DNA from: Eledone cirrhosa
Taxonomy: Eukaryota
Direction: 5' to 3'
DNA length: 64,000 nt
NCBI GenBank assembly: GCA_964016885.1
Contig: OZ024750.1
Location: 35,650,001-35,714,000, forward strand
Under the pieces are notes generated by a model, which was given only the letters and a program-made list of their open reading frames with translations, was not told the DNA's origin and ran no database searches. Made by a program: the position numbers and the translations under genes. Positions 9,001 through 64,000 of the stretch are shown here, one piece after another (positions within the stretch are counted from its first letter, which is position 1; each line of letters begins with the position of its first letter).

Positions 9001-12000
9001 TGTTGATAGCTGTATATATGAGAGATGTTTGTGTAAACATGACATCAAATGTGTTGATAGCTGTTTATATGAGAGATGTTTGTGTAAACATGACATCAAA
9101 TGTGTTGATAGCTGTTTATATGAGAGATGTTTGTGTAAACATGACATCAAATGTGTTGATAGCTGTTTATATGAGAGATGTTTGTGTAAACATGACATCA
9201 AATGTGTTGATAGCTGTTTATATGAGAGATGCATGTGTAAACATGACATCAAATGTATTGATAGCTGTTTATATGAGAGATGTTTGTGTAAACATGACAT
9301 CAAATGTGTTGATAGCTGTATATATGAGAGATGTTTGTGTAAACATGACATCAAATGTGTTGATAGCTGTTTATATGAGAGATGAATGTGTAAACATGAC
9401 ATCAAATGTGTTGATAGCTGTATATATGAGAGATGAATGTGTAAACATGACATCAAATGTGTTGATAGCTGTTTATATGAGAGATGAATGTGTAAACATG
9501 ACATCAAATGTGTTGATAGCTGTATATATGAGAGATGTTTGTTTAAACATGACATCAAATGTGTTGATAACTGTTTATATGGGAGATGTTTGTGTAAACA
9601 TGACATCAAATGTGTTGATAGCTGTTTATATGAGAGATGTTTGTGTAAACATGACAACAAATGTGTTGATAGCTGTTTATATGAGAGATGAATGTGTAAA
9701 CATGACATCAAATGTATTGATAGCTGTTTATATGAGAGATGTTTGTGTAAACATGACATCAAATGTGTTGATAGCTGTATATATGAGAGATGTTTGTGTA
9801 AACATGACATCAAATGTGTTGATAGCTGTTTATATGAGAGATGTATGTGTAAACATGACATCAAATGTGTTGATAGCTGTATATATGAGAGATGAATGTG
9901 TAAACATGACATCAAATGTGTTGATAGCTGTTTATATGAGAGATGAATGTGTAAACATGACATCAAATGTGTTGATAGCTGTATATATGAGAGATGTTTG
10001 TGTAAACATGACATCAAATGTGTTGATAACTGTTTATATGAGAGATGTTTGTGTAAACATGACATCAAATGTGTTGATAGCTGTTTATATGAGAGATGTT
10101 AGTGTAAACATGACATCAAATGTGTTGATAGCTGTTTATATGAGAGATGAATTTGTAAACATGACATCAAATGTGTTGATAGCTGTTTATATGAGAGATG
10201 AATGTGTAAAGATGACATCAAATGTGTTGATAGCTGTTTATATGAGAGATGTTTGTGTAAACATGACATCAAATGTGTTGATAACTGTTTATATGAGAGA
10301 TGTTTGTGTAAATATGACATCAAATGTGTTGATAGCTGTTTATATGAGAGATGAATTTGTAAACATGACATCAAATGTGTTGATAGCTGTTTATATGAGA
10401 GATATTTGTGTAAACATGACATCAAATGTGTTGATAGCTGTTTATATGAGAGATATTTGTGTAAACATGACTTCAAATGTGTTGATAGCTGTTTATATGA
10501 GAGATGAATGTGTAAACATGACATCAAATGTATTGATAGCTGTTTATATGAGAGATGTTTGTGTAAACGTGACATCAAATGTGTTGATAGCTGTTTATAT
10601 GAGAGATGAATGTGTAAACATGACATCAAATGTGTTGATACCTGTATATATGAGAGATGTTTGTGTAAACATGACATCAAATGTGTTGATAGCTGTATAT
10701 ATGAGAGATGTTTGTGTAAACATGACATCAAATGTGTTGATAGCTGTTTATATGAGAGATGTTTGTGTAAACATGACATCAAATGTGTTGATAGCTGTTT
10801 ATATGAGAGATGTTTGTGTAAACATGACATCAAATGTGTTGATAGCTGTTTATATGAGAGATGTTTGTGTAAACATGACATCAAATGTGTTGATAGCTGT
10901 TTATATGAGAGATGCATGTGTAAACATAACATCAAATGTATTGATAGCTGTTTATATGAGAGATGTTTGTGTAAACATGACATCAAATGTGTTGATAGCT
11001 GTATATATGAGAGATGTTTGTGTAAACATGACATCAAATGTGTTGATAGCTGTTTATATGAGAGATGAATGTGTAAACATGACATCAAATGTGTTGATAG
11101 CTGTATATATGAGAGATGAATGTGTAAACATGACATCAAATGTGTTGATAGCTGTTTATATGAGAGATGAATGTGTAAACATGACATCAAATGTGTTGAT
11201 AGCTGTATATATGAGAGATGTTTGTGTAAACATGACATCAAATGTGTTGATAACTGTTTATATGAGAGATGTTTGTGTAAACATGACATCAAATGTGTTG
11301 ATAGCTGTTTATATGAGAGATGTTTGTGTAAACATGACATCAAATGTGTTGATAGCTGTTTATATGAGAGATGAATTTGTAAACATGACATCAAATGTGT
11401 TGATAGCTGTTTATATGAGAGATGAATGTGTAAACATGACATCAAATGTGTTGATAGCTGTATATATGAGAGATGTTTGTGTAAACATGACATCAAATGT
11501 GTTGATAACTGTTTATATGAGAGATGTTTGTGTAAACATGACATCAAATGTGTTGATAGCTGTTTATATGAGAGATGAATGTGTAAACATGACATCAAAT
11601 GTGTTGATAGCTGTATATATGAGAGATGAATGTGTAAACATGACATCAAATGTGTTGATAGCTGTTTATATGAGAGATGTTTGTGTAAACATGACATCAA
11701 ATGTGTTGATAGCTGTTTATATGAGAGATGTTTGTGTAAACATGACATCAAATGTGTTGATAGCTGTTTATATGAGAGATGTTTGTGTAAACATGACATC
11801 AAATGTGTTGATAGCTGTTTATATGAGAGATGAATGTGTAAACATGACATCAAATGTATTGATAGCTGTTTATATGAGAGATGTTTGTGTAAACATGACA
11901 TCAAATGTGTTGATAGCTGTATATATGAGAGATGTTTGTGTAAACATGACATCAAATGTGTTGATAGATGTTTATATGAGAGATGTACGTGTAAACATGA

Positions 12001-28025: not shown

Positions 28026-28246
28026 TAATTTGAATAGAAACGTGTTAATAACTTTGGTAGTTATTCACCTAATCAATAAGATGAGGTTAATAAAAGCGTC
28101 TTTTATGTTCTTTAGCTTAAGGTCAGCACTGATTAAATAAAATTTGATCAAAGCTATTCAAGTTGTTATCATTCTGGTTTTTTTTTAAAGTCATAATGTA
28201 ACCAAGACTGCATTATTCTGAAGTTATATGTATTTTTATCTTTTAA

Positions 28247-29513: not shown

Positions 29514-29689
29514 ACATATAATTTTACCCTAGCTTAATCCAGATTTCTAATATTTCATCTTTTTATTCAATAAAAGTAGTAATCTAGGCATTAATACTAT
29601 GGATAAGATCAGATTTTTGTGGAAGACAACAAATATATTTGGATGCCATTGGTAATTCATTGAAATATCAAATATTTTTTATTATTTAA

Positions 29690-30163
29690 CCCTTTAGCAT
29701 TCACATTACTCTATATATACTATCATATTTTCACGGTAAAGGCTTTATCTCACATAATTATCTCACATATCTCACATAACATTCACATTACTCTATATAT
29801 ACTATCATATGTTCACGGTAAAGGCTTTATCTCACATAATTATCTCACATAATATCTCACATAACATTCACATTACTCTATATATATACTATCATATTTT
29901 CACGGTAAAGGCTTTATCTCACATAATTATCTCACATAATATCTCACATAACATTCACATTACTCTATATATACTATCATATTTTCACGGTAAAGGCTTT
30001 ATCTCACATAATTATCTCACATAATATTGAATCTATGAGATTTTGAAAGTATTTATTTTGAAAACAATACCTTAACATCAGTTTGAGTGACCAGTTACAG
30101 CCAGTTTCAACAGAAAAAGGTAGAGAATTCTGGCCGGTTTTGGCCGGTTTGAACATTAAAGGG
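29690..30163 (+). mobile_element. piggyBac-like TTAA MITE copy 3, 4 internal ~84-bp units
   Basis: TTAA|CCCTTTAGCATTCA...TGAACATTAAAGGG|TTAA (11/14 TIR match). Confidence 0.9.
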
Positions 30164-30505
30164 TTAATCAGAGGAGGGGCAATACCCATGGTCTTTATTT
30201 GTTCAGGGTTTCAAAGACTGGTGGCAGAAAAGATGATTGATATCCTCAAGCTGATGACCTAGCCCAAATGCCTGCAATAGATTGAGTGCTGCTAATGGCA
30301 TCAAAGAACTTTGTGGCAGATTATGTCTACCACACAACTCATAACTATACAACAACTCATCTCATCTGATAACATTTCTGCCAATCCATTGCTCTGAATT
30401 TCTAGTTTATTTTATTAATCCTAAAAGGATGACAGTTAAGCATATCAGGATTTGAACTCAGAATGCAGAGATCTGGGACAAATACCCCAAAGCATTAAAG
30501 TTAAG

Positions 30506-32335: not shown

Positions 32336-32415
32336 AGTAAAGGGGAGCTTGTTACCCTTTATATAATGCTATTTTAGGTATCATTTTAAAGGTAGTAATG
32401 TGTTTAACCCTTTAG

Positions 32416-33282
32416 CATTTACATTACTCTATATATACTATTATATTTTCATGGTAAAGGCTTTACCTCACATAATATCTCATATAACATTTACATTACT
32501 CTATATATACTATTGTATTTTCATGGTAAAGGCTTTACCTCACATAATATCTCATATAACATTTACATTACTCTATATATACTATTGTATTTTCATGGTA
32601 AAGGCTTTACCTCACATAATATCTCACATAACATTTACATTACTCTATATATACTATTATATTTTCGTGGTAAAGGCTTTACCTTACATAATATCTCACA
32701 TAACATTCACATTACTCTATATATACTATTATATTTTCATGGTAAAGGCTTTACCTCACATAATATCTCACATAACATTCACATTACTCTATATATACTA
32801 TTATATTTTCATGGTAAAGGCTTTACCTTACATAATATCTCACATAACATTCACATTACTCTATATATACTATTATATTTTCATGGTAAAGGCTTTAACT
32901 TACATAATATCTCACATAACATTCACATTACTCTATATATACTATTATATTTTCATGGTAAAGGCTTTAACTTACATAATATCTCACATAACATTCACAT
33001 TACTCTATATATACTATTATATTTTCATGGTAAAGGCTTTACCTCACATAATATCTCACATAACATTCACATTACTCTATATATACTATTATATTTTCAT
33101 GGTAAAGGCTTTACCTTACATAATATCTCACATAACATTTACATTACTCTATATATACTATTATATTTTCATGGTAAAGGCTTTACCTTACATAATATCT
33201 CACATAACATTTACATTACTCTATATATACTATTATATTTTCATGGTAAAGGCTTTACCTCACATAATATCTCACATAACAT
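32416..33282. repeat. 72-bp tandem repeat, 12 copies, internal to MITE copy 4
   Basis: Direct periodicity; 24-aa repeat in spurious ORFs 32400..33359 and 32513..33307. Confidence 0.95.
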
Positions 33283-33294
33283 CTCGTATACGAG

Positions 33295-33311
33295 AGACGT
33301 GTGTTGACGTG
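33295..33311 (+). promoter_or_regulatory. Candidate internal-promoter DPE-like motifs (GACGTG twice) of the LINE
   Basis: AGACGTG and TGACGTG within 30 nt of the 5' junction; similar motifs are known in Drosophila jockey/Doc/I LINE promoters; function inferred. Confidence 0.4.
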
Positions 33312-33492
33312 TGTGAACAAGCTCGGCTACCGAGTCGGATTTACTTACTCAAAAAGTGAGTTTTGATTAATTTTTTATACTGTAATATACGTTAACCCCT
33401 TGCCTTGGTCGTCAAACTTTGAGTTTATTTATTTTCGCCCCTTTTTGGGGCGAATTTTCCAGTTAAAAATTTATTACGGCAAACTAATAGAA

Positions 33493-35234
33493 ATGGACGG
33501 AATTTTCACATCTCATCCTAACGTGAAAGCCACGCCCCCTAAGAAAGGTGATACAGAGAAGCTAGAAGCACAAGGCTCTAAGTCTTCCCTCCTCACTTCT
33601 GCAAAAGAAACATGGAACACGAAATTAAAAGAAAAATTTGTAGAAATGGGTGAAAACCCAGAAAGTCACATAAACGCAGACAAAAACATCAACGACAATA
33701 ACAGCAATAGTCACAACACCAACCAAGGAAAAAATAACGATAACACCAAACAAAGTGAACCCACTACTGGTACCTCCTTTGCACAGGCGGTCCGGAAAAC
33801 ACAAACCTGCAAGCAACTGGACATTACAACTCTGAGAGAAAAGATGAAGGAAGCGAAACAGTATGTAACTTTCAAAGAAGGAGGAGACTTCACAATCACC
33901 TCCCCACAAGAAATCAAAAGAGACACGACGCTAAGAACGATATCTTTCAGAACAATTTCCAACATAACAAGGAAACCAACTCAATTATCCCAAAAAGAGA
34001 TTGAGCTGGTCCTAAAAAATGTGTGGAGTGATATATCGTTCATACAAAAAGGGCCACTCTATGGGAATATAACGGTCCTAATGAAGGATCAATTGACGGC
34101 CAGGAAATACTCTGTGGCACCAATTGTTTCCAAGATATATACATTTTTCCCCACATATTTAGGGAAAAGAACGCAGAAGATAAGGGTCTCCGGAATCCGG
34201 CCAAATGCATGCATTTCCTGGGTACTAACAGGATTTTTAGAAGACGAGGACGGAATCCTCTCAGTAGGAGAAGTCACCACAGACGTTTTCGGCGGTTTGA
34301 GCGTGGAGGTTCTGGTCCAAATGAGACCAGAACGAATCGCTAGAATACCACAGAGGGTGTCCCTCGATGGAGAAACATTTATATATATTTCAGCCGAGGG
34401 TAGGAGGCCCATATGTTACTACTGTTCAAGCAGGGGTCATCTAAGGGCTGCTTGTCCTCAATTGACAAAAAAAAGGCTCTTTTGCCTACACCCCACACAC
34501 CACCACCGCCACCACCACCACCACCACCACCTCCACCACCACCACCACAACAACAACAAAAACAACAGGGAAAAATAACACAAGACACGGCCCCACCCAA
34601 AACAACTCCCAAAACACACACAAATACAACAAAACCTCAAAATACACCACTACCCGACAGCACGGACGAGGACCCAGCGGAAACGGCACCTAGTGACGAA
34701 GAGGGGGAACCCTTCCAACCTGTAAAAAGGAAAAAAAGAAAGCACCACTCGAACATAAACGAAACAAACACACAACCACCAACAAAAACAAAACAAACAG
34801 AACAAACAAAATCCGCCCCACCCCAAAACATAACACATACAACAAAACGTAAGCACACACAAGAACAACAAACAAACACAACACAAATAAAACAGTATAC
34901 ATACATTAACACAAATAACAAAGAACTAGTAAAAACAATACACAAAGACCCTTTGGTGGAAACCGAAGGGCAATTCTTTGCAAGCGCGGCCAACAAACCG
35001 CATTTAAAAATGATAAGACTCCCAATGGACACCTATGCAAAACTAAGAGAGAACTTTCCTGAGGACGTGGGGAAAACATGTACTCGACCCTATAACCGCG
35101 TCCTCTTGAAACGTTTCCCCACCCACACCTCACCAAACACCCCCACTCCACCACAGAACAACACCCCACCAAACAACCCCTCCAATACGCCCATGGATAT
35201 TGTGCAACCTGCTCCTCAGGAGCCGAACAGGTAG
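33493..35234 (+). CDS. Tx1 LINE ORF1 (nucleic-acid-binding, zinc knuckle), -1 frameshift at A8 run 34467-34474
   Basis: ATG 33493; SFAQAV motif; CYYCSSRGHLRAAC = CX2CX4HX4C; -1 frame continues Pro/Thr-rich with FQPVKRKKRK to a stop 21 nt before ORF2. Confidence 0.8.
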
Positions 35235-35255
35235 GTCCTTCCTCTTTTAACCAAC

Positions 35256-38200
35256 ATGGCTGATATAAGAGTTGGGTTTCTGAATGTACGTGGCCTGGGA
35301 CTGTCTTGGAAACAAGGCAAACTTTTAAACGATCTCAGGTCACATAGAATGGATGTAATGGCTATTTGCGAGTCCAGGATCAGCAGCGAGCACCAACTGG
35401 CGCCCCTCTTCGACGACTTTGAGATCTTCGCATCTCTCTGTCAACCGGGGGGTGGGGGTGGAGTTGTCGTTCTGCTGCGAAAACACCTGGGCCTCGCCAT
35501 ACAGAAGGTGCACCTGGACCCGGAGGGTCGACTGGTGGTTTTAGACGTCGGCAGTAGTGAAAGTGGAGCCCTTAGACTAATAGCTGTGTACGCCCCTTTT
35601 TGGGCAGCGCGGCCGGAATACTTCCAACGTCTGGAAACTTTTCTGGGAACGTCCCGCTCCTTGCTTTTAGTGGGGGACTGGAATGGTATCCTGGATGCAC
35701 GTTGGGACTATGTAGGGGCATGTGCCAATAGAGGGGGGTGTAAAAGCCTCAAAAGGTTAATCGGCCGATTTGACCTGGCCGATAGATATCGACTAGATTT
35801 TCCGACTGTACCACTATGGACGTGGACCAATCGCAGTGGAACATCTAGGTCGTACCTAGATAGGGTCCTAGTTAGAGAGAACGATAGGGACACATTTAGC
35901 TGTCCAAAAATGTTCATGGTTGACTATTCGGATCACAAGTTAGTGACCTGCATAGCCAACCTTGATAGAACCCATAGACAGGGACCCGGTTACTGGAAGC
36001 TGAACTTGTCCTTACCGAGAAGCAAAGCTTACAGTAAACGGATTAGCACGTTAGTTAAGCAGAATTTGACAGGGGCAATTGTCAACAACAGGTGGTGGAG
36101 CTCTCTTAAGAGAGCAATTAGAATAGAATCGATAGGTTTTAGTCAGGAATTAGCAAGGGATAGGAACAAGACGGAAAGGGAATTAGTAGATAGAGTAGAA
36201 GAGGCGATTAGGAGTGGCAATGTAGCCGGCGTGCTGGCATCAAGAATGGCCTTAGACCAGTTCTTTGAGGTGAAGCATGAAGGCTGCGTTGTCAGGAGTA
36301 AAATACGTGCTCTGGGTAATGAGGGAGCCAAAGCTGTAAGCTGGGCCCGAGTGACAGAGGCAAAAAGTGGGAACAAGTCCACGATTCGGTCTTTGAAGGA
36401 CCAGGATGGGCGTGTGATCCTTGAACCTGGGCAGATGTGTGCGGCCTTTCAGCGGCACTTTGCACGACTGTTCGAGAGGGGCGGCGCGCCGGGTGAGACT
36501 ATGGATTTCAATCCATACCTCGACGGTCTGCCGCGCCTCTCGGACGCGGAGGCGAAGTCCTGCGAAAGGACGATTTCAGCTGCTGAGATAGGGGCGGCGC
36601 TGAGCCAATGCGGCAAACGCAAATCCCCGGGTCTCGATGGTCTACCATACGAGCTATATGTAGCGATGCCGGACTTGTTCTCCGATATCCTCGAAGCGGT
36701 CTACTGCAACTGGCAGCAGAACGGGAGAATTCCCAGTTCTGTGACCAAGGGCGTAGTTACGCTGGTGAGGAAGGATGAGAACAAGGGGGATGACATAAGT
36801 AACTTCAGGCCCATAACTCTGCTAAATACAGAGTTAAAGATTTTGGCCAAGGTGTTAGCGAAGAGGTTGGCGCTTGTCGTTGGAAACCTGGTGGGAGAAG
36901 CGCAGACATGCGCAATCCCGTCCAGGTCCATTCACGACAATCTCCACCTTATGCGATACATCATAGAGAGGGTAGGGAATGAACCCGGCTTTGGTGGGGC
37001 CCTGATCAACTTGGATCAATCTAAAGCTTTCGATAGGGTTGACCATCGTTACCTGGATGCGGTGCTCGCGGCGGCAGGCTTCGGACCCGTTTTCAGGGGT
37101 TGGATTGCTGCGATGCACAGCAGCAACGTCTGCTCAAGGGTCAAGGTGAACGGCCACCTCTCGGAGCCGTTCCAAATCATGCGATCCATCCGACAGGGAT
37201 GCCCTCTCTCCTCCCTACTGTATGTGCTGGCTCTTGAGCCACTACTGCGGAAGTTGGAGCGGTTGCAGGGCATCCCTTTGGAACCGGGATTGCAGAAAGC
37301 GGCGTCGGCCTACGCCGATGACGTGACAGTAATGGTGTCGAAAACCTCGCAAATCGGTGAGATCGGCACCTTACTGGAGGAATATGAAAGGTTTACAGGA
37401 GCCAAGCTGAACCGGGACAAGTCCGTCGGTTTGCAACTCGGAACATGGAGAGGCAAACCGATGCCCTCCAACGACGTCGTCGGACGCTGGACGGAGGGCC
37501 CGGTGAAGCTGCTTGGGGTCTGGTTCGGACCAGACCTCCAGGTGGAGAAAAACTGGAACGAGGTAACGGCCAGGGTGTTTGCACTCACCCAGAAGTGGGC
37601 CCAGTGCAAACTATCCCTGAAAGGTCGAGCGGAGGTGGCGAATACTTATATAGCATCCGTCATCTACTACCGCTTGACCGTCGTGCCTTGCCCAGTGAAA
37701 AGACTCGCCAAAATGGAGTGCGCGCTGTTCCAATTTCTTTGGAACAAGCGGACCCCTTTGGTGAGGAGATCCATCTGCTGTCAACACCCTTCGAAAGGAG
37801 GGCTGGGGATGCCGTGGCTACAGATGCGTAAACACGCATTAAGGCTACGGCACCTCCAGGTATTCCTCACCGGTCAACCGGTGTGGGCCCCGTTTGTGAG
37901 GCGAGCCTTTCCCAGACTCGTCTCGCTCACCGAGCTGCAATCCTGGGTCAAGCAAAGACCGAGAAAAGTGGGCGACTGGCACATTGAATGTGCCCAGGCG
38001 CTCACGGCCCTCTGGAAAGCGGACCCGGCAATCAGTGGAGACTCCACCTCGACATTCTATAGAGGGTTGGTACGCAGCAGGTGCGACGATGCTCTCGGAG
38101 AAGCTCTAGGCATGGAGGAAGATGAACTGGCCAGTCTGTTCGGTAGGACGTTTGGCCCTGGACCGATGGACAACTTCCAAAAGTCCCTGGCTTGGCAGTG

Positions 38201-38693
38201 CTACCGAGGGGCTCTACCCGTTCGAGACAAGCTCCACAGACATGGGAGCCTGGGTAGAGATCCTTTGAATAAGATCTGTCCGAGATGCGTGCATGATGAC
38301 GAAACCGTTGCGCACGCATTCGTACACTGCCCAGGCATTGCTGACCTGTGGGGCTATGTGGAACGACTACTGTCGAGGGTGGGACCAATCCGGTTGACCA
38401 CCGAGTCCATTGTCACGATCAAACCGCCTCCCCCTTTCAAAAACGAAGGAGAGGCGGTTTTTCTCTGTGTGGTAGCCATGGCTAAAGAAGTTGTATGGTG
38501 GACGAGGCTGAAAGGGCTGAGGTCAGACACCTTTCTCTCCGGCCAACAACTGGTCCCCTTTTTCAAATACCATTTTAAAAGAAGGATCAGAATGGAGAGA
38601 GAGGTGCTCTACCCCAGCAAGTTTTATGAAAGGTGGGTGAAAGTAGGGAGAATGGCCAGAGTGAATGGGTCTTCTCTCTATATCAGCCTGTAG
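35256..38693 (+). CDS. Tx1 LINE ORF2: APE endonuclease + reverse transcriptase + C-terminal zinc finger, 1145 aa, intact
   Basis: APE motifs NVRG, CES, GDWN, YLDR, SDH; GPGYWKLN; KSPGLDGLPYE; FRPITLLN; LDQSKAFDRVDH; RQGCPLS; YADD; CPRC-X8-H-X4-C. Confidence 0.97.
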   Translation: MADIRVGFLNVRGLGLSWKQGKLLNDLRSHRMDVMAICESRISSEHQLAPLFDDFEIFASLCQPGGGGGVVVLLRKHLGLAIQKVHLDPEGRLVVLDVGSSESGALRLIAVYAPFWAARPEYFQRLETFLGTSRSLLLVGDWNGILDARWDYVGACANRGGCKSLKRLIGRFDLADRYRLDFPTVPLWTWTNRSGTSRSYLDRVLVRENDRDTFSCPKMFMVDYSDHKLVTCIANLDRTHRQGPGYWKLNLSLPRSKAYSKRISTLVKQNLTGAIVNNRWWSSLKRAIRIESIGFSQELARDRNKTERELVDRVEEAIRSGNVAGVLASRMALDQFFEVKHEGCVVRSKIRALGNEGAKAVSWARVTEAKSGNKSTIRSLKDQDGRVILEPGQMCAAFQRHFARLFERGGAPGETMDFNPYLDGLPRLSDAEAKSCERTISAAEIGAALSQCGKRKSPGLDGLPYELYVAMPDLFSDILEAVYCNWQQNGRIPSSVTKGVVTLVRKDENKGDDISNFRPITLLNTELKILAKVLAKRLALVVGNLVGEAQTCAIPSRSIHDNLHLMRYIIERVGNEPGFGGALINLDQSKAFDRVDHRYLDAVLAAAGFGPVFRGWIAAMHSSNVCSRVKVNGHLSEPFQIMRSIRQGCPLSSLLYVLALEPLLRKLERLQGIPLEPGLQKAASAYADDVTVMVSKTSQIGEIGTLLEEYERFTGAKLNRDKSVGLQLGTWRGKPMPSNDVVGRWTEGPVKLLGVWFGPDLQVEKNWNEVTARVFALTQKWAQCKLSLKGRAEVANTYIASVIYYRLTVVPCPVKRLAKMECALFQFLWNKRTPLVRRSICCQHPSKGGLGMPWLQMRKHALRLRHLQVFLTGQPVWAPFVRRAFPRLVSLTELQSWVKQRPRKVGDWHIECAQALTALWKADPAISGDSTSTFYRGLVRSRCDDALGEALGMEEDELASLFGRTFGPGPMDNFQKSLAWQCYRGALPVRDKLHRHGSLGRDPLNKICPRCVHDDETVAHAFVHCPGIADLWGYVERLLSRVGPIRLTTESIVTIKPPPPFKNEGEAVFLCVVAMAKEVVWWTRLKGLRSDTFLSGQQLVPFFKYHFKRRIRMEREVLYPSKFYERWVKVGRMARVNGSSLYISL

Positions 38694-39160
38694 GTGAAAG
38701 AAGAGGAAAAAGCGGAGACGAGGGAAGCACCTACTCTTTGTGCTCCTGAGGAGAAGGGTTACACATTTTTTCCGGGGTGTGTGCGACCCATGTTAATGCC
38801 CCCTCCCTATTGAGGACTTCGTTTGTTGTTGTTATTTCATTGTTATATTTTTGTACTCGTTAATTATATGTAAACTTCCCCCCTTGTATCTGTCCCTACC
38901 TTTTGTGCCCTAGTGGCAAATAAAGAAACCACTCTATATATACTATTATAATTGCATGGTAAAGGTTTTACCTCACATAATTATCTCACATAATATTGAA
39001 TCTATGAGATTTTGAAAGTATTTATTTTGAGAACAATACCTTAACATCAGTTTGAGTGACCACTTACAGCCAGTTTCAACAGAAAAAGCTAGAGAATTCT
39101 GGCCAGTTTGAACATTAAAGGGTTAAATGAAGATTTAGTGACTTAAGTAACTGCATAAAG

Positions 39161-53064: not shown

Positions 53065-53835
53065 ATGCCAATTTTTGTATATTCTTTTATCTCTATAACG
53101 ATTGACTCAATTTTCACTTGATCAAGTGTGAATTTTCCGACAGTTTACCAAAAATATTGCTAAATCTTTTCAATGCATCAGTTGTATTGCAATACGGATT
53201 ATTGAATGTCAACTTTCTGTTGTTGTTGTTTTTATACGCTTGTTGCTATCCACATTTCATCTTACTATCTCACTTCAAATCATTTTAACAATACTATTCA
53301 TTATCTTTTGCACAAATAACTCTCTTTTTATACAATTAATATTGAACACAGAAGTATTTCTAGTTCTTATGGTTGAAATATTAATTTGGTTCTTAATTCT
53401 TCCTAAATTATTCATTTTCTATCTTACTCTCTCAGTTTTACCTTTTTACCTTAATAATCTGTTATTGTATTGATATAACAACTGTGAGAATTGTAAATTG
53501 AATTCAACTCTAATACAAATATTTTTAATGATTTTAAATAACTTGCATTTTTATAGATTTTAAGAAGCTTTAGAAAAGTACAAGAAGCTTGTATAGCTTA
53601 TCATAGGTAACATTTTTGATATTTCATAAGAAAATCTTTCCCGTCTTTCTTTAATTTCATTACCTGGAAGCATATTTTAATGTTTTGAAAGAAATATTTT
53701 ATTAATTTTCATTTTATATTATTTAAAAGTTTCCAGTTACTGATATGAAATCTTTCTCATCAGATCAGTTCATCTTATATAGTAACTGTATAGTACAGTT
53801 ATTATAGTATACAGTATACAGTAACTGTTTTATAT

Positions 53836-56800
53836 AGTTATTATATTATACTGTTACTATATTATACTGTTACTATATTATACAGTTACTATATTATACA
53901 GTTACTATATTATACAGTTACTATAATATACTGTTACTATATTATACAGTTACTATATTATACTGTTACTATATTATACTGTTACTATATTATGTAGTTA
54001 CTATATTATACTGTTACTATATTATGTAGTTACTATATTATACTGTTACTATATTATACAGTTACTATATTATACTGTTACTATATTATACTGTTACTAT
54101 ATTATGTAGTTACTATATTATACAGTTACTATATTATACAGTTACTATATTATACTGTTACTATAATATGTAGTTACTATATTATACAGTTACTATATTA
54201 TGTAGTTACTATATTATGTAGTTACTATATTATACTGTTACTATATTATGTAGTTACTATATTATACTGTTACTATATTATGTAGTTACTATATTATACT
54301 GTTACTATATTATACTGTTACTATATTATACTGTTACTATATTATACAGTTACTATATTATGTAGTTACTATATTATACAGTTACTATATTATACAGTTA
54401 CTATATTATACTGTTACTATATTATACTGTTACTATGTTATACAGTTACTATATTATACTGTTACGATATTATATTGTTACTATATTATACTGTTACTAT
54501 ATTATACAGTTACTATATTATACTGTTACTATATTATGTAGTTACTATATTATACTGTTACTATATTATACAGTTACTATATTATACAGTTACTATATTA
54601 TACTGTTACTATATTATACAGTTACTATATTATACAGTTACTATATTATACAGTTACTATATTATACAGTTACTATATTATACTGTTACTATATTATACA
54701 GTTACTATATTATACAGTTACTATATTATGTAGTTACTATATTATACAGTTACTATATTATGTAGTTACTATATTATACTGTTACTATATTATACTGTTA
54801 CTATATTATACAGTTACTATATTATACTGTTACAATATTATGTAGTTACTATATTATACTGTTACTATATTATACAGTTACTATATTATACAGTTACTAT
54901 ATTATACTGTTACTATATTATACAGTTACTATATTATACAGTTACTCTATTATACAGTTACTATATTATACAGTTACTATATTATACTGTTACTATATTA
55001 TACAGTTACTATATTATACAGTTACTATATTATACTGTTACTATATTATACTATTACTATATTATACAGTTACTATATTATACTGTTACTATATTATACT
55101 GTTACTATATTATGTAGTTACTATATTATACTGTTACTATATTATGTAGTTACTATATTATGTAGTTACTATATTATACTGTTACTATATTATGTAGTTA
55201 CTATATTATACTGTTACTATATTATGTAGTTACTATATTATACTGTTACTATATTATACTGTTACTATATTATACTGTTACTATATTATACAGTTACTAT
55301 ATTATGTAGTTACTATATTATACAGTTACTATATTATACAGTTACTATATTATACAGTTACTATATTATACTGTTACTATATTATGTAGTTACTATATTA
55401 TACTGTTACTATATTATACTGTTACTATATTATACTGTTACTATATTATACAGTTACTATATTATGTAGTTACTATATTATACAGTTACTATATTATGTA
55501 GTTACTATATTATGTAGTTACTATATTATACTGTTACTATATTATGTAGTTACTATATTATACTGTTACTATATTATACAGTTACTATATTATGTAGTTA
55601 CTATATTATGTAGTTACTATATTATACTTTTACTATATTATGTAGTTACTATATTATACTGTTACTATATTATACAGTTACTATATTATACTGTTACTAT
55701 ATTATACTGTTACTATATTATGTAGTTACTATATTATACAGTTACTATATTATACAGTTACTATATTATACTGTTACTATAATATGTAGTTACTATATTA
55801 TACAGTTACTATATTATACAGTTACTATATTATACTGTTACTATATTATACAGTTACTATATTATACAGTTACTATGTTATACAGTTACTATATTATACT
55901 GTTACTATATTATACGGTTACTATATTATACAGTTACTATATTATACAGTTACTATATTATACTGTTACTATATTATACAGTTACTATATTATACTGTAA
56001 CTATATTATACAGTTACTATATTATACTGTTACTATATTATACTGTTACTATGTTATACAGTTACTATATTATGCTGTTACTATATTATACTGTTACTAT
56101 ATTATACTGTTACTATATTATACAGTTACTATATTATACTGTTACTATATTATGTAGTTACTATATTATACTGTTACTATATTATACAGTTACTATATTA
56201 TACAGTTACTATATTATACTGTTACTATATTATACAGTTACTATATTGTACAGTTACTATATTATACAGTTACTATATTATACTGTTACTACATTATACA
56301 GTTACTATATTATACAGTTACTATATTATGTAGTTAATATATTATACAGTTACTATATTATGTAGTTACTATATTATACTGTTACTATATTATACTGTTA
56401 CTATATTATACTGTTACTATATTATACAGTTACTATATTATATTGTTACTATATTATGTAGTTACTATATTATACTGTTACTATATTATACAGTTACTAT
56501 ATTATACAGTTACTATATTATACAGTTACTATATTATATAGTTACTATATTATACAGTTAGTATATTATGTAGTTACTATATTATGTAGTTACTATATTA
56601 TACTGTTACTATATTATGTAGTTACTATATTATACTGTTACTATATTATGTAGTTACTATATTATACTGTTACTATATTATACTGTTACTATATTATACT
56701 GTTACTATATTATACAGTTACTATATTATGTAGTTACTATATTATACAGTTACTATATTATACTGTTACTATATTATGTAGTTACTATATTATGCTGTTA

Positions 56801-59800
56801 CTATATTATACTGTTACTATATTATACTGTTACTATATTATACAGTTACTATATTATGTAGTTACTATATTATACAGTTACTATATTATGTAGTTACTAT
56901 ATTATGTAGTTACTATATTATACTGTTACTATATTATGTAATTACTATATTATACTGTTTCTATATTATACAGTTACTATATTATGTAGTTACTATATTA
57001 TACTGTTACTATATTATACTGTTACTATATTATACTGTTACTATATTATACAGTTACTATATTATACTGTTACTATATTATACTGTTACTATATTATGTA
57101 GTTACTATATTATACAGTTACTATATTATACAGTTACTATATTATACAGTTACTATAATATACTGTTACTATATTATACAGTTACTATATTATACTGTTA
57201 CTATATTATACTGTTACTATATTATGTAGTTACTATATTATACTGTTACTATATTATGTAGTTACTATATTATACTGTTACTATATTATACAGTTACTAT
57301 ATTATACTGTTACTATATTATACTGTTACTATATTATGTAGTTACTATATTATACAGTTACTATATTATACAGTTACTATATTATACTGTTACTATAATA
57401 TGTAGTTACTATATTATACAGTTACTATATTATGTAGTTACTATATTATGTAGTTACTATATTATACTGTTACTATATTATGTAGTTACTATATTATACT
57501 GTTACTATATTATGTAGTTACTATATTATACTGTTACTATATTATACTGTTACTATATTATACTGTTACTATATTATACAGTTACTATATTATGTAGTTA
57601 CTATATTATACAGTTACTATATTATACAGTTACTATATTATACTGTTACTATATTATACTGTTACTATGTTATACAGTTACTATATTATACTGTTACGAT
57701 ATTATATTGTTACTATATTATACTGTTACTATATTATACAGTTACTATATTATACTGTTACTATATTATGTAGTTACTATATTATACTGTTACTATATTA
57801 TACAGTTACTATATTATACAGTTACTATATTATACTGTTACTATATTATACAGTTACTATATTATACAGTTACTATATTATACAGTTACTATATTATACA
57901 GTTACTATATTATACTGTTACTATATTATACAGTTACTATATTATACAGTTACTATATTATGTAGTTACTATATTATACAGTTACTATATTATGTAGTTA
58001 CTATATTATACTGTTACTATATTATACTGTTACTATATTATACAGTTACTATATTATACTGTTACAATATTATGTAGTTACTATATTATACTGTTACTAT
58101 ATTATACAGTTACTATATTATACAGTTACTATATTATACTGTTACTATATTATACAGTTACTATATTATACAGTTACTCTATTATACAGTTACTATATTA
58201 TACAGTTACTATATTATACTGTTACTATATTATACAGTTACTATATTATACAGTTACTATATTATACTGTTACTATATTATACTATTACTATATTATACA
58301 GTTACTATATTATACTGTTACTATATTATACTGTTACTATATTATGTAGTTACTATATTATACTGTTACTATATTATGTAGTTACTATATTATGTAGTTA
58401 CTATATTATACTGTTACTATATTATGTAGTTACTATATTATACTGTTACTATATTATGTAGTTACTATATTATACTGTTACTATATTATACTGTTACTAT
58501 ATTATACTGTTACTATATTATACAGTTACTATATTATGTAGTTACTATATTATACAGTTACTATATTATACAGTTACTATATTATACAGTTACTATATTA
58601 TACTGTTACTATATTATGTAGTTACTATATTATACTGTTACTATATTATACTGTTACTATATTATACTGTTACTATATTATACAGTTACTATATTATGTA
58701 GTTACTATATTATACAGTTACTATATTATGTAGTTACTATATTATGTAGTTACTATATTATACTGTTACTATATTATGTAGTTACTATATTATACTGTTA
58801 CTATATTATACAGTTACTATATTATGTAGTTACTATATTATGTAGTTACTATATTATACTTTTACTATATTATGTAGTTACTATATTATACTGTTACTAT
58901 ATTATACAGTTACTATATTATACTGTTACTATATTATACTGTTACTATATTATGTAGTTACTATATTATACAGTTACTATATTATACAGTTACTATATTA
59001 TACTGTTACTATAATATGTAGTTACTATATTATACAGTTACTATATTATACAGTTACTATATTATACTGTTACTATATTATACAGTTACTATATTATACA
59101 GTTACTATGTTATACAGTTACTATATTATACTGTTACTATATTATACGGTTACTATATTATACAGTTACTATATTATACAGTTACTATATTATACTGTTA
59201 CTATATTATACAGTTACTATATTATACTGTAACTATATTATACAGTTACTATATTATACTGTTACTATATTATACTGTTACTATGTTATACAGTTACTAT
59301 ATTATGCTGTTACTATATTATACTGTTACTATATTATACTGTTACTATATTATACAGTTACTATATTATACTGTTACTATATTATGTAGTTACTATATTA
59401 TACTGTTACTATATTATACAGTTACTATATTATACAGTTACTATATTATACTGTTACTATATTATACAGTTACTATATTGTACAGTTACTATATTATACA
59501 GTTACTATATTATACTGTTACTACATTATACAGTTACTATATTATACAGTTACTATATTATGTAGTTAATATATTATACAGTTACTATATTATGTAGTTA
59601 CTATATTATACTGTTACTATATTATACTGTTACTATATTATACTGTTACTATATTATACAGTTACTATATTATATTGTTACTATATTATGTAGTTACTAT
59701 ATTATACTGTTACTATATTATACAGTTACTATATTATACAGTTACTATATTATACAGTTACTATATTATATAGTTACTATATTGTACAGTTAGTATATTA

Positions 59801-62800
59801 TGTAGTTACTATATTATGTAGTTACTATATTATACTGTTACTATATTATGTAGTTACTATATTATACTGTTACTATATTATGTAGTTACTATATTATACT
59901 GTTACTATATTATACTGTTACTATATTATACTGTTACTATATTATACAGTTACTATATTATGTAGTTACTATATTATACAGTTACTATATTATACTGTTA
60001 CTATATTATGTAGTTACTATATTATGCTGTTACTATATTATACTGTTACTATATTATACTGTTACTATATTATACAGTTACTATATTATGTAGTTACTAT
60101 ATTATACAGTTACTATATTATGTAGTTACTATATTATGTAGTTACTATATTATACTGTTACTATATTATGTAATTACTATATTATACTGTTTCTATATTA
60201 TACAGTTACTATATTATGTAGTTACTATATTATACTGTTACTATATTATACTGTTACTATATTATACAGTTACTATATTATGTAGTTATTTTATTATACA
60301 GTTACTATATTATACAGTTACTATATTATACAGTTACTATATTATACAGTTACTATATTATACAGTTACTATATTATGTAGTTACTATGTTATACAGTTA
60401 CTATATTATGTAGTTACTATATTATACAGTTACTATATTATACTGTTACTATATTATACAGTTACTATATTATACAGTTACTATATTATACTGTTACTAT
60501 ATTATGTAGTTACTATATTATACTGTTACTATATTATACTGTTACTATATTATACTGTTACTATGTTATACAGTTACTATATTATACTGTTACTATATTA
60601 TACAGTTACTATATTATACTGTTACTATATTATACAGTTACTATATTATACTGTTACTATATTATACTGTTACTATATTATACTGTTACTATGTTATACA
60701 GTTACTATATTATACTGTTACTATATTATACAGTAACTATATTATACAGTTAGTATATCATACTGTTACTATATTATGTAGTTACTATATTATACTGTTA
60801 CTATATTATACTGTTACTATATTATACTGTTACTATATTATACAGTTACTATATTATACTGTTACTATATTATACAGTTACTATATTATACAGTATAATA
60901 TAGTAACAGTATAATATAGTAACAGTATATTATACAGTTACTATATTGTGTAGTTACTATATTATACAGTTACTATATTATGTAGTTACTATATTATACA
61001 GTTACTATATTATAGTGTTACTATATTATACAGTTACTATATTATACTGTTACTATATTAAACTGTTACTATATTATACTGTTACTATATTATACTGTTA
61101 CTATATTATACTGTTACTATATTATGTAGTTACTATATTATACAGTTACTATATTATACAGTTACTATATTATACAGTTACTATATTATACAGTTACTAT
61201 ATTATACTGTTACTATATTATACAGTTACTATATTATACAGTTACTATATTATACGGTTACTATATTATACTGTTACTATATTATACAGTTACTATATTA
61301 TACTGTTACTATATTATACTGTTACTATATTATACAGTTACTATATTATACTGTTACTATATTATACAGTTACTATATTATACAGTTACTATATTATACG
61401 GTTACTATATTATACTGTTACTATATTATACAGTTACTATATTATACTGTTACTATATTATACAGTTACTATATTATACTGTTACTATATTATACTGTTA
61501 CTATATTATGTAGTTACTATATTATACAGTTACTATATTATACAGTTACTATATTATACAGTTACTATATTATACAGTTACTATATTATACTGTTACTAT
61601 ATTATACAGTTACTATATTATACAGTTACTATATTATACGGTTACTATATTATACTGTTACTATATTATACAGTTACTATATTATACTGTTACTATATTA
61701 TACTGTTACTATATTATACAGTTACTATATTATACTGTTACTATATTATACAGTTACTATATTATACAGTTACTATATTATACGGTTACTATATTATACT
61801 GTTACTATATTATACAGTTACTATATTATACTGTTACTATATTATACAGTTACTATATTATACTGTTACTATATTATACAGTTACTATAATATACTGTTA
61901 CGATATTATACAGTTACTATATTATACAGTTACTATATTATACTGTTACTATATTATACAGTTACTATATTATACTGTTACTATATTATACTGTTACTAT
62001 ATTATACAGTTACTATATTATACTGTTACTATATTATACTGTTACTATATTATACAGTTACTATATTATACAGTTACTATATTATACTGTTACTATATTA
62101 TACTGTTACTATATTATACTGTTAATATATTATACTGTTACTATATTATACAGTTACTATATTATACTGTTACTATATTATACAGTTACTATATTATACT
62201 GTTACTATATTATGTAGTTACTATATTATACTGTTACTATATTATGTAGTTACTATATTATACAGTTACTATATTGTAAAGTTACTATATTATACAGTTA
62301 CTATATTATACTGTTACTATATTATACAGTTACTATATTATACAGTTACTATACTATACTGTTACTATATTATACAGTTACTATATTATACAGTTACTAT
62401 ATTATACTGTTACTATATTATACAGTTACTATATTATACAGTTACTATATTATACAGTTACTATATTATACAGTTACTATATTATACTGTTACTATATTA
62501 TACAGTTACTATATTATACAGTTGCTATATTATACTGTTACTATATTATGTAGTTACTATATTATACAGTTACTATATTATACTGTTACTATATTATACT
62601 GTTACTATATTATACTGTTACTATATTATACAGTTACTATATTATACTGTTACTATATTATACTGTTACTATATTATACTGTTACTATATTATACTGTTA
62701 CTATATTATGTAGTTACTATATTATACTGTTACTATATTATGTAGTTACTATATTATACTATTACTATATTAAACTGTTACTATATTATACTGTTACTAT

Positions 62801-64000
62801 ATTATACAGTTACTATAATATGTAGTTACTATATTATAAAGTTACTATATTATACAGTTACTATATTATACAGTTACTATATTATACTGTTACTATATTA
62901 TGTAGTTACTATATTATACTGTTACTATATTATACTGTTACTATATTATACTGTTACTATATTATACAGTTACTATATTATGTAGTTACTATATTATACA
63001 GTTACTATATTATGTAGTTACTATATTATGTAGTTACTATATTATACTGTTACTATATTATGTAGTTACTATATTATACTGTTACTATATTATACAGTTA
63101 CTATATTATGTAGTTACTATATTATACTGTTACTATATTATACAGTTACTATATTATACTGTTACTATGTTATACAGTTACTATGTTATACTGTTACTAT
63201 ATTATACAGTTACTATATTATACTGTTACTATATTATACAGTTACTATATTATACTGTTACTATATTATAATGTTACTATATTATGTAGTTACTATATTA
63301 TACTGTTACTATATTATGTAGTTACTATATTATACAGTTACTATATTATACAGTTACTATATTATACAGTTACTATATTATACTGTTACTATATTATACA
63401 GTTACTATATTATACTGTTACTATATTATACAGTTACTATATTATACTGTTACTATATTATACTGTTACTATATTATACATTTACTATATTATACTGTTA
63501 CTATATTATACAGTTACTATATTATACAGTTACTATATTATACTGTTACTATATTATACAGTTACTATATTATACTGTTACTATATTATGTAGTTACTAT
63601 ATTATACTGTTACTATATTATGTAGTTACTATATTATACTATTACTATATTATGTAGTTACTATATTATACAGTTACTATATTATACAGTTACTATATTA
63701 TACTGTTACTATATTATACTGTTACTATATTATACTGTTACTATATTATGTAGTTACTATATTATACAGTTACTATATTATACTGTTACTATATTATGTA
63801 GTTACTATATTATACTGTTACTATATTATGTAGTTACTATATTATACAGTTACTATATTATACAGTTACTATATTATACAGTTACTATATTATACAGTTA
63901 CTATATTATACTGTTACTATATTATACAGTTACTATATTATACTGTTACTATATTATACTGTTACTATATTATACTGTTACTATATTATACTGTTACTAT
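53836..64000. repeat. 16-bp satellite GTTACTATATTA(TACT/TACA/TGTA), ~635 monomers, open at right edge
   Basis: Direct periodicity with three dominant monomer variants. Confidence 0.97.

Follow-up and report, generated by a model that had tools for sequence, protein, structure and literature searches.

A LINE within the internal tandem repeat of a TTAA-flanked miniature transposon of the octopod Eledone cirrhosa

In the frog Xenopus laevis, Tx1L inserts in the internal tandem repeat of the TTAA-flanked element Tx1D and produces a target duplication of 23 bp. Tx1L is a non-LTR element (LTR, long terminal repeat) of the apurinic endonuclease (APE) type, located at a specific site of a non-autonomous piggyBac-type DNA transposon (PMC4494074, PMC1950540, PMC6719617). 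The crocodilian families Tx1-Mar, Tx1-9_AMi and SINEU-3, which group with Keno, prefer the non-autonomous DNA transposons Mariner-N4_AMi and Harbinger, but as described this is a preference only (313 of 347 for SINEU-3) and for an old target; the 5′ extension of SINEU-2B is in turn derived from its target transposon (PMC4494074). Here we analyse a long interspersed nuclear element (LINE) found in a window of 64,000 nucleotides (the whole stretch of DNA studied) of the octopod Eledone cirrhosa (assembly GCA_964016885.1, contig OZ024750.1, positions 35,650,001 to 35,714,000, forward strand), where it occupies a specific site in a miniature inverted-repeat transposable element (MITE) that is non-autonomous and apparently of piggyBac type. 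The likeness to Tx1L in Tx1D drawn in an earlier note on this DNA is thus apt, since the kind of target is the same, a non-autonomous piggyBac-type transposon receiving a site-specific LINE (PMC4494074).

The two systems differ in their hosts, a frog and an octopod. Unlike Tx1L with its duplication, the window LINE has no short target-site duplication and exhibits a uniform loss of 7 nt of target. Like the crocodilian Tx1 families it targets a non-autonomous DNA transposon; unlike them, it belongs to a separate clade (100/100 support) outside the U2-flanked group, looks young and nucleotide-exact in its insertion. Transposon-targeting Tx1 elements being already known from frogs and crocodiles, this LINE is a well-supported, site-specific element of this transposon-targeting kind. 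We found no description of a transposon-targeting LINE of cephalopods in the literature searched, a search outside which Repbase and subscription papers lie. In their available text, two octopus repeat papers name L1-Tx1 merely as an abundant or active class (PMC13282606, PMC8967140), and the repeat library of O. vulgaris includes 13 recently active L1-Tx1 families (PMC13282606); this library may contain the LINE family without its target being noted.

The LINE measures 5,648 bp (33283-38930) and forms with the MITE a composite of the Tx1C type: it interrupts the tandem repeat inside a non-autonomous element that is flanked by TTAA and has kept both its ends. The earlier note had proposed this succession of parts, and every one of them is present at the coordinates that it gave:

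32404..32407, forward strand: left TTAA target site of the MITE
32408..32419, forward strand: left terminal inverted repeat (TIR) of the MITE, starting with CCC; 7 bp perfect, 9 of 12 positions matching the right end
32416..33282, forward strand: tandem array of 12 72-bp units followed by CAT, with which a 13th unit begins (3 nt)
Last 21-30 nt of the array 32416..33282, forward strand: flank common to LINE copies of sequencing runs X1, X2 and X5 (see below)
33283..33492, forward strand: LINE 5′ untranslated region (UTR), beginning within a 12-bp palindrome
33493..35234, forward strand: LINE open reading frame 1 (ORF1), ~580 codons if read through, with a single CCHC knuckle at 34414-34455
35256..38693, forward strand: LINE ORF2, 1,145 aa, with APE at residues 10-227, reverse transcriptase (RT) at 512-756 and a C-terminal zinc finger
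38694..38930, forward strand: LINE 3′ UTR, with AATAAA at 38919-38924, 6 nt before the junction, and without poly(A) tail
38931..38997, forward strand: remainder of the target unit, upstream of which 7 nt are missing
38998..39122, forward strand: MITE body and right TIR
39123..39126, forward strand: right TTAA target site of the MITE

Both ends of the MITE have survived, as had been claimed, with the two TTAA sites in place and an inverted repeat that is perfect over merely 7 bp. The array units match each other at 98%, and 7 nt of the 72-bp unit are absent at the LINE site. ORF2, announced as intact, is open throughout, encodes APE, RT and zf-RVT domains and possesses all catalytic motifs looked for. 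A search at the locus found no short target-site duplication around the LINE, and its 3′ end has no poly(A) tail. To read the site as a target duplication of 65 nt would require 3 substitutions and an indel. DNA of the 72-bp unit type accounts for 613 of the 19,066 non-satellite bases of the window outside the composite (3.2%), so that a lone insertion proves little about specificity; it is the sequencing runs described next that go beyond chance.

Other copies of the LINE were sought in public sequencing runs with positions 35256-38930 as the query. Of the 21 runs listed, 15 contain part of the query and four, all from one organism (organism A) and one study, contain 70-74% of its words; five runs were compared in detail and those with small word shares were left out. 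Contigs lose rare variants, and contig depth is not a copy number. In run X1, a contig of 93 bp (33262-33354) crosses the 5′ junction without any difference at a depth of 1,951.6, as against ~1,830 (1,656 + 174) for the interior of the 5′ UTR, and provides the entire depth across 33293-33322. The words that cross the junction represent 21 of the 63 31-mers of this contig (on the assumption of k = 31); had these words been present in a single copy, a depth of ~2,900 would be required in the interior. Since the depth of the contig matches that of the UTR interior, nearly all 5′-complete copies have the same 21-nt flank, which starts in this contig directly past a C/T site variable among units. 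The junction is also crossed with 28 identical flank letters in run X2 (record 9) and 30 in run X5 (record 23), that is, in three of four runs altogether. Run X19, which consists of raw reads from a restriction-site-associated DNA (RAD) library cut at AATT, as judged from the read ends, has a depth below 10 at this junction and no alternative flank among the rows listed.

At the 3′ end, record 13 of X5 (38615-38947, 2 differences in 333) continues for 17 aligned letters past the junction and, after 38947, departs from the flank that the LINE has in the window. A contig of X1 has a loose end of 12 letters behind 38947 that comes from another MITE variant; 17 letters being fewer than the shortest piece listed, this contig most likely includes the end of the LINE. 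No 3′ crossing was found among the pieces listed for X19 and X6, nor is any loose end listed at 38930. The X1 contig of the 3′ UTR (38793-38917) has no differences and a depth of 2,487, and the resulting 5′/3′ depth ratio of 0.78 means that most LINE copies look full length. X1 also has contigs at depths of 6-12, and its depths suggest a rough figure of ~150-300 LINE copies, depth not being a copy number. The same 3′ nucleotide followed by different downstream MITE sequence points to independent insertions. The view of the earlier note, of a retrotransposon whose target is the repeat inside a TTAA MITE, is therefore supported, both by the uniform 5′ junction at family-wide depth and by the shared 3′ nucleotide with differing MITE sequence behind it. 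The flanks of other copies share the unit junction, at the 5′ end in X1, X2 and X5 and at the 3′ end in X5 and probably X1, with crossings shorter than 31 letters. The pieces of X6, at a depth of 2-4, are possibly carry-over. For X5, whose contigs equal the majority form of organism A, either a sister species or carry-over from A may be the source. In both cases it displays a copy, or a majority form, in which this junction is followed by another flank, and we claim no conservation across species.

The element belongs to a young family of APE-type LINEs with many copies. We consider it probable that the family is site-specific at the CATT/ACTC step of the 72-bp unit and that its 5′ end is completed through pairing of target sequence carried on its RNA with the upstream DNA. 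The bottom strand would be nicked by the APE domain either right at the 3′ junction or slightly inside it, at the CATT/ACTC step. Transcription would begin upstream, within the units, so that the RNA has unit sequence ahead of the LINE, and the cDNA could then anneal to the upstream half of the target; the 7-nt gap would be a scar inherited from the founder and not cut anew at every insertion. At the other end, with AATAAA no more than 6 nt ahead of the 3′ junction, the RNA likely continues by some bases into the target downstream, where it would pair with the primer. The abundant MITE would offer a low-cost landing site.

Three observations point to target sequence on the RNA, the first of them by comparison with R2. 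Where R2 elements retain upstream 28S sequence on the RNA, their 5′ junctions are uniform, and in the springtail R2 so is a deletion of 7 bp, whereas the Drosophila R2, without such an upstream piece, has variable 5′ junctions of which less than 40% are canonical (PMC3774820). The window LINE resembles the springtail, earwig and Bombyx R2 with upstream 28S on the RNA in its uniform 5′ junction, and in its 7-nt target loss the one among them with an inherited 7-bp deletion; in R2 such junctions are explained by annealing of the cDNA to the target (PMC3774820), and the identical loss in nearly all copies argues for a target carried on RNA here as well. Pairing of a read-through RNA with the target is also known to help priming in R2Ol (PMC6530143). 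R2 differs in its restriction-like endonuclease, its single ORF, its target in rDNA and its ribozyme like that of hepatitis delta virus (HDV); the window LINE combines an APE with two ORFs and inserts in a MITE, and we found no ribozyme in it.

The units on the two sides of the LINE are also informative. The unit on its right is unlike all 12 on its left, with 3 private substitutions and one extra T, and it holds 3 of the 4 singleton substitutions found among the 13 units, which has a p of 0.002 for this particular unit and of 0.02 for any one of them. In an empty MITE copy of the window (copy C), variants are common to all four units. As the LINE is young and the right unit odd, the left and right halves probably had separate histories, and the LINE may have brought in part of the 12 left units. 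The earlier note took these 12 units for the MITE's own array; the array itself is confirmed, but the mismatch between left and right suggests that part of its units may have arrived with the LINE. Among the X19 reads listed that reach the end of a unit, 232 of 644 enter another unit and 412 enter the MITE body, so that many targets should have a TIR upstream; yet the 5′ junction in X1 is of the array type at full depth.

Several points weigh against this explanation. No crossing reaches 31 letters on each side of a junction: there are 21, 28 and 30 at the 5′ end, where the assembly graph breaks in the abundant repeat, and 17 at the 3′ end. For the latter we have one listed piece in four runs and the one deduced in X1. 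Since contigs drop rare variants, a minority of off-target copies would stay hidden. At letters private to the right half of the MITE copy in the window, the residual depth of X1 (~1,855 at 39089, ~5,000 at 38951) is of the order of the LINE depth, so that many copies may have this same right half. X5 may be no second species, in which case its flank would possibly be carry-over from organism A. The 36% share of arrays among the X19 reads is biased by the AATT-cut RAD library. Homogenisation is often weaker in the terminal units of an array, a possible reason for the oddness of the right unit. Finally, no RNA run appears among those listed, and neither a structure descriptor nor Rfam revealed a ribozyme to set the RNA's 5′ end.

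A broader version of the proposal, which we put forward tentatively, is that the LINE RNA contains whole 72-bp units; insertions would then lengthen the left array and multiply the element's own landing sites. The LINE would thus build the very minisatellite in which it inserts, and its APE lineage would have arrived at the targeting of MITE repeats independently of the frog Tx1L.

Pure DNA recognition, without any target carried on RNA, would have the endonuclease take only junctions internal to arrays and make a fixed staggered cut that always removes 7 nt. Such a cut accounts for the uniformity of both junctions, 5′ and 3′; a fixed stagger by which bases of the target are lost has a precedent in R2Bm (2 bp, PMC6895275), and in vitro the Tx1L endonuclease nicks its target almost exclusively (PMC1950540). 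We nevertheless think this unlikely, because it leaves the difference of the right unit from all 12 left units unexplained and because elements without upstream target on their RNA have variable 5′ junctions, like the Drosophila R2 mentioned above (PMC3774820).

Hitchhiking appears rather improbable too. One or few LINE insertions would here have been followed by multiplication of the composite through a piggyBac-type transposase or segmental duplication, from which one would expect junctions that are uniform and copies that are for the most part full length (cf. the ratio of 0.78), and both the intact TTAA-TIR ends and the residual X1 depth at the private letters of the MITE's right half are compatible with it. 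However, the downstream flanks of the window copy, of X5 record 13 and of the X1 loose end diverge 18 nt past the junction, whereas there are only 0-2 differences in 125-333 letters between the ends of the LINE; a minimum of two or three insertions, each made separately at the same nucleotide, is thus required. The suggestion of the earlier note that the composite could be carried by cut-and-paste is unsupported, and as the only route it is hard to reconcile with 3′ flanks that differ.

The mismatch between the left and right units could also result from ectopic recombination between LINE copies in different MITEs, or from misassembly, an explanation mute on the mechanism of insertion and to which we give a low probability. 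The near-identity of LINE copies over their UTRs and the position of the locus between two large satellites are in its favour, but it explains the mismatch at the window locus only and leaves the family-wide junction evidence untouched. The intact outer TTAA sites are no test of recombination, TTAA being identical at every site. The 3.2% share of unit DNA in the non-satellite part of the window, and trees that do not split the element from L1-like proteins, might lend some credit to the idea that a non-specific L1-like element landed by chance in a repeat that is abundant and AT-rich. This idea is very improbable and largely refuted by the X1 junction data, as it can yield neither one 5′ junction at family-wide depth nor the same 3′ nucleotide in other copies.

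Few nucleotide-exact APE-type retrotransposons exist, and a family that is young, has an intact ORF2 and numbers many near-identical copies offers a ready system in which to ask how the APE domain and the template RNA share the choice of the target. If the 5′ flank is indeed carried on the RNA, this would be a case of R2-style, homology-primed completion in an element of the L1/Tx1 group with a transposon target, and LINE insertion may feed the growth of minisatellites in octopod genomes.

From its predicted N-terminal APE, RT and C-terminal CCHC finger, the element can be classified as an APE-type non-LTR retrotransposon of the L1 group (L1/Tx1), and ORF2 scores 184 bits against human L1 ORF2p versus 85 against R2. 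Its nearest named relative is from Argonauta hians (64%). Trees were built of 89 rows (FastTree), of 37 of those rows (RT) and of 26 rows (full length). In the RT and full-length trees, ORF2 and its relatives form their own clade (100/100), the fork of which with the U2-flanked, 5S-flanked and L1-like rows is not split. Pairwise scores outside this lineage are 372-462 bits for U2-flanked proteins, 311-335 for 5S-flanked and 235-239 for L1-like ones. Tx1-clade ORF1 proteins have a CCHC knuckle, unlike the coiled-coil type of vertebrate L1. Membership of the Tx1 clade, as assigned in the earlier note, is therefore likely, since the pairwise scores favour the U2-flanked proteins and ORF1 has such a knuckle, although none of the three trees separated Tx1 from L1. 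Tx1L, Keno and Kibi do not occur by name among the 79, 23 and 47 matches of three protein searches.

Mutsu targets 5S. The scores of the window ORF2 recall both this element and Keno (labelled as U2 after PMC4494074), as its best values outside the lineage are with U2-flanked and then 5S-flanked ORF2s; unlike Keno and Mutsu, it lies inside neither clade and has no RNA gene at its insertion site. A search of window positions 28000-54000 for an RNA-gene target gave no Rfam match. No close relative with flanks was found among 80 metagenome loci, the best segments of which are mostly 24-33% identical, with one at 44%; an Rfam scan of 40 of these 80 loci detected U2 in 5, 5S in 2 and U1 in 1, used as tree anchors only. 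These distant relatives adjoin U2 small nuclear RNA (snRNA; L001, L002, L009, L012, L015), 5S rRNA (L016, L020) or U1 snRNA (L036). In L036, U1 is at 9079-9233, ~1.7 kb past ORF2, and this locus may represent a U1-associated family.

A -1 frameshift located in or close to an A8 run (34467-34474) splits ORF1. Homopolymers of the 5′ UTR vary in length among copies (33351 and 33370), most of the X1 depth as well as X5 having one extra T at 33370, so that the ORF1 frameshift could be a copy variant or an assembly error. The CCHC knuckle of ORF1 has the form CX2CX4HX4C; its atlas matches are to zf-CCHC clusters (0.91-0.92), and a comparison with Pfam gave no significant match. ORF2 is framed by a strong splice donor, CAG/GTAGGT (35230/35231), and by a pyrimidine tract with an AG that doubles as the ORF2 stop; the predicted excision of 35231-38693 would restore ORF1's own C-terminus and stop. 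The end of ORF1 and start of ORF2 (35190-35281) are complementary to the end of ORF2 and start of the 3′ UTR (38662-38778), with a predicted duplex of -95.8 kcal/mol, and this pairing is the top of 263 windows scanned (-83.8 versus a mean of -40.7, standard deviation 11.0).

A 66-bp tail of the LINE (38863-38928) has a counterpart ~86% identical in another abundant element, seen in 1,767 X19 reads with one common upstream sequence. The element with this similar tail also occurs in X5 and X6, and it is a candidate for a short interspersed nuclear element (SINE) partner or a sister family. At the other end, a contig of X2 skips 166 nt of the 5′ UTR (33312-33479) with non-canonical ends at a depth of 41, about half the local value. 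This skip, not seen in X1, X5 or X19, is a candidate deletion derivative or RNA form. The structure descriptor of an HDV-like ribozyme gave 0 matches at the LINE 5′ end, against 2 in 40 shuffles, and Rfam chance matches only. For the RNA of the 5′ junction (33260-33316), an interrupted hairpin is predicted in which two CACAT repeats of the flank pair with two GTGTG tracts of the LINE. The flank with the first 34 nt of the LINE reaches a folding z of -2.5 in one of four windows (-0.4, -1.2 and -2.0 in the others), and at least 8 of 103 LINE sites pair better with the flank than the LINE start does, which makes the hairpin statistically weak.

The TTAA target site and inverted termini starting with CCY are hallmarks of piggyBac-type transposons. 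Both are found at the two ends of 2 of the 5 MITE copies of the window, with differing flanks, and on these termini the MITE is putatively piggyBac-derived. The empty versions that had been noticed nearby are indeed present, as four relatives starting at 28243, 28902, 29686 and 48292 that have different flanks and 0-4 units each; both ends are intact only in the 29686 copy. The units of copy C (29686-30167) measure 82-87 bp owing to an additional 13-bp subrepeat, so that the arrays grown from one and the same segment of the MITE differ in the length of their units. The five copies lie in a 26-kb island between two satellites, one of at least 28 kb with a 51-bp unit (1-28012) and the other of at least 10 kb with a 16/32/48-bp unit (53815-64000).

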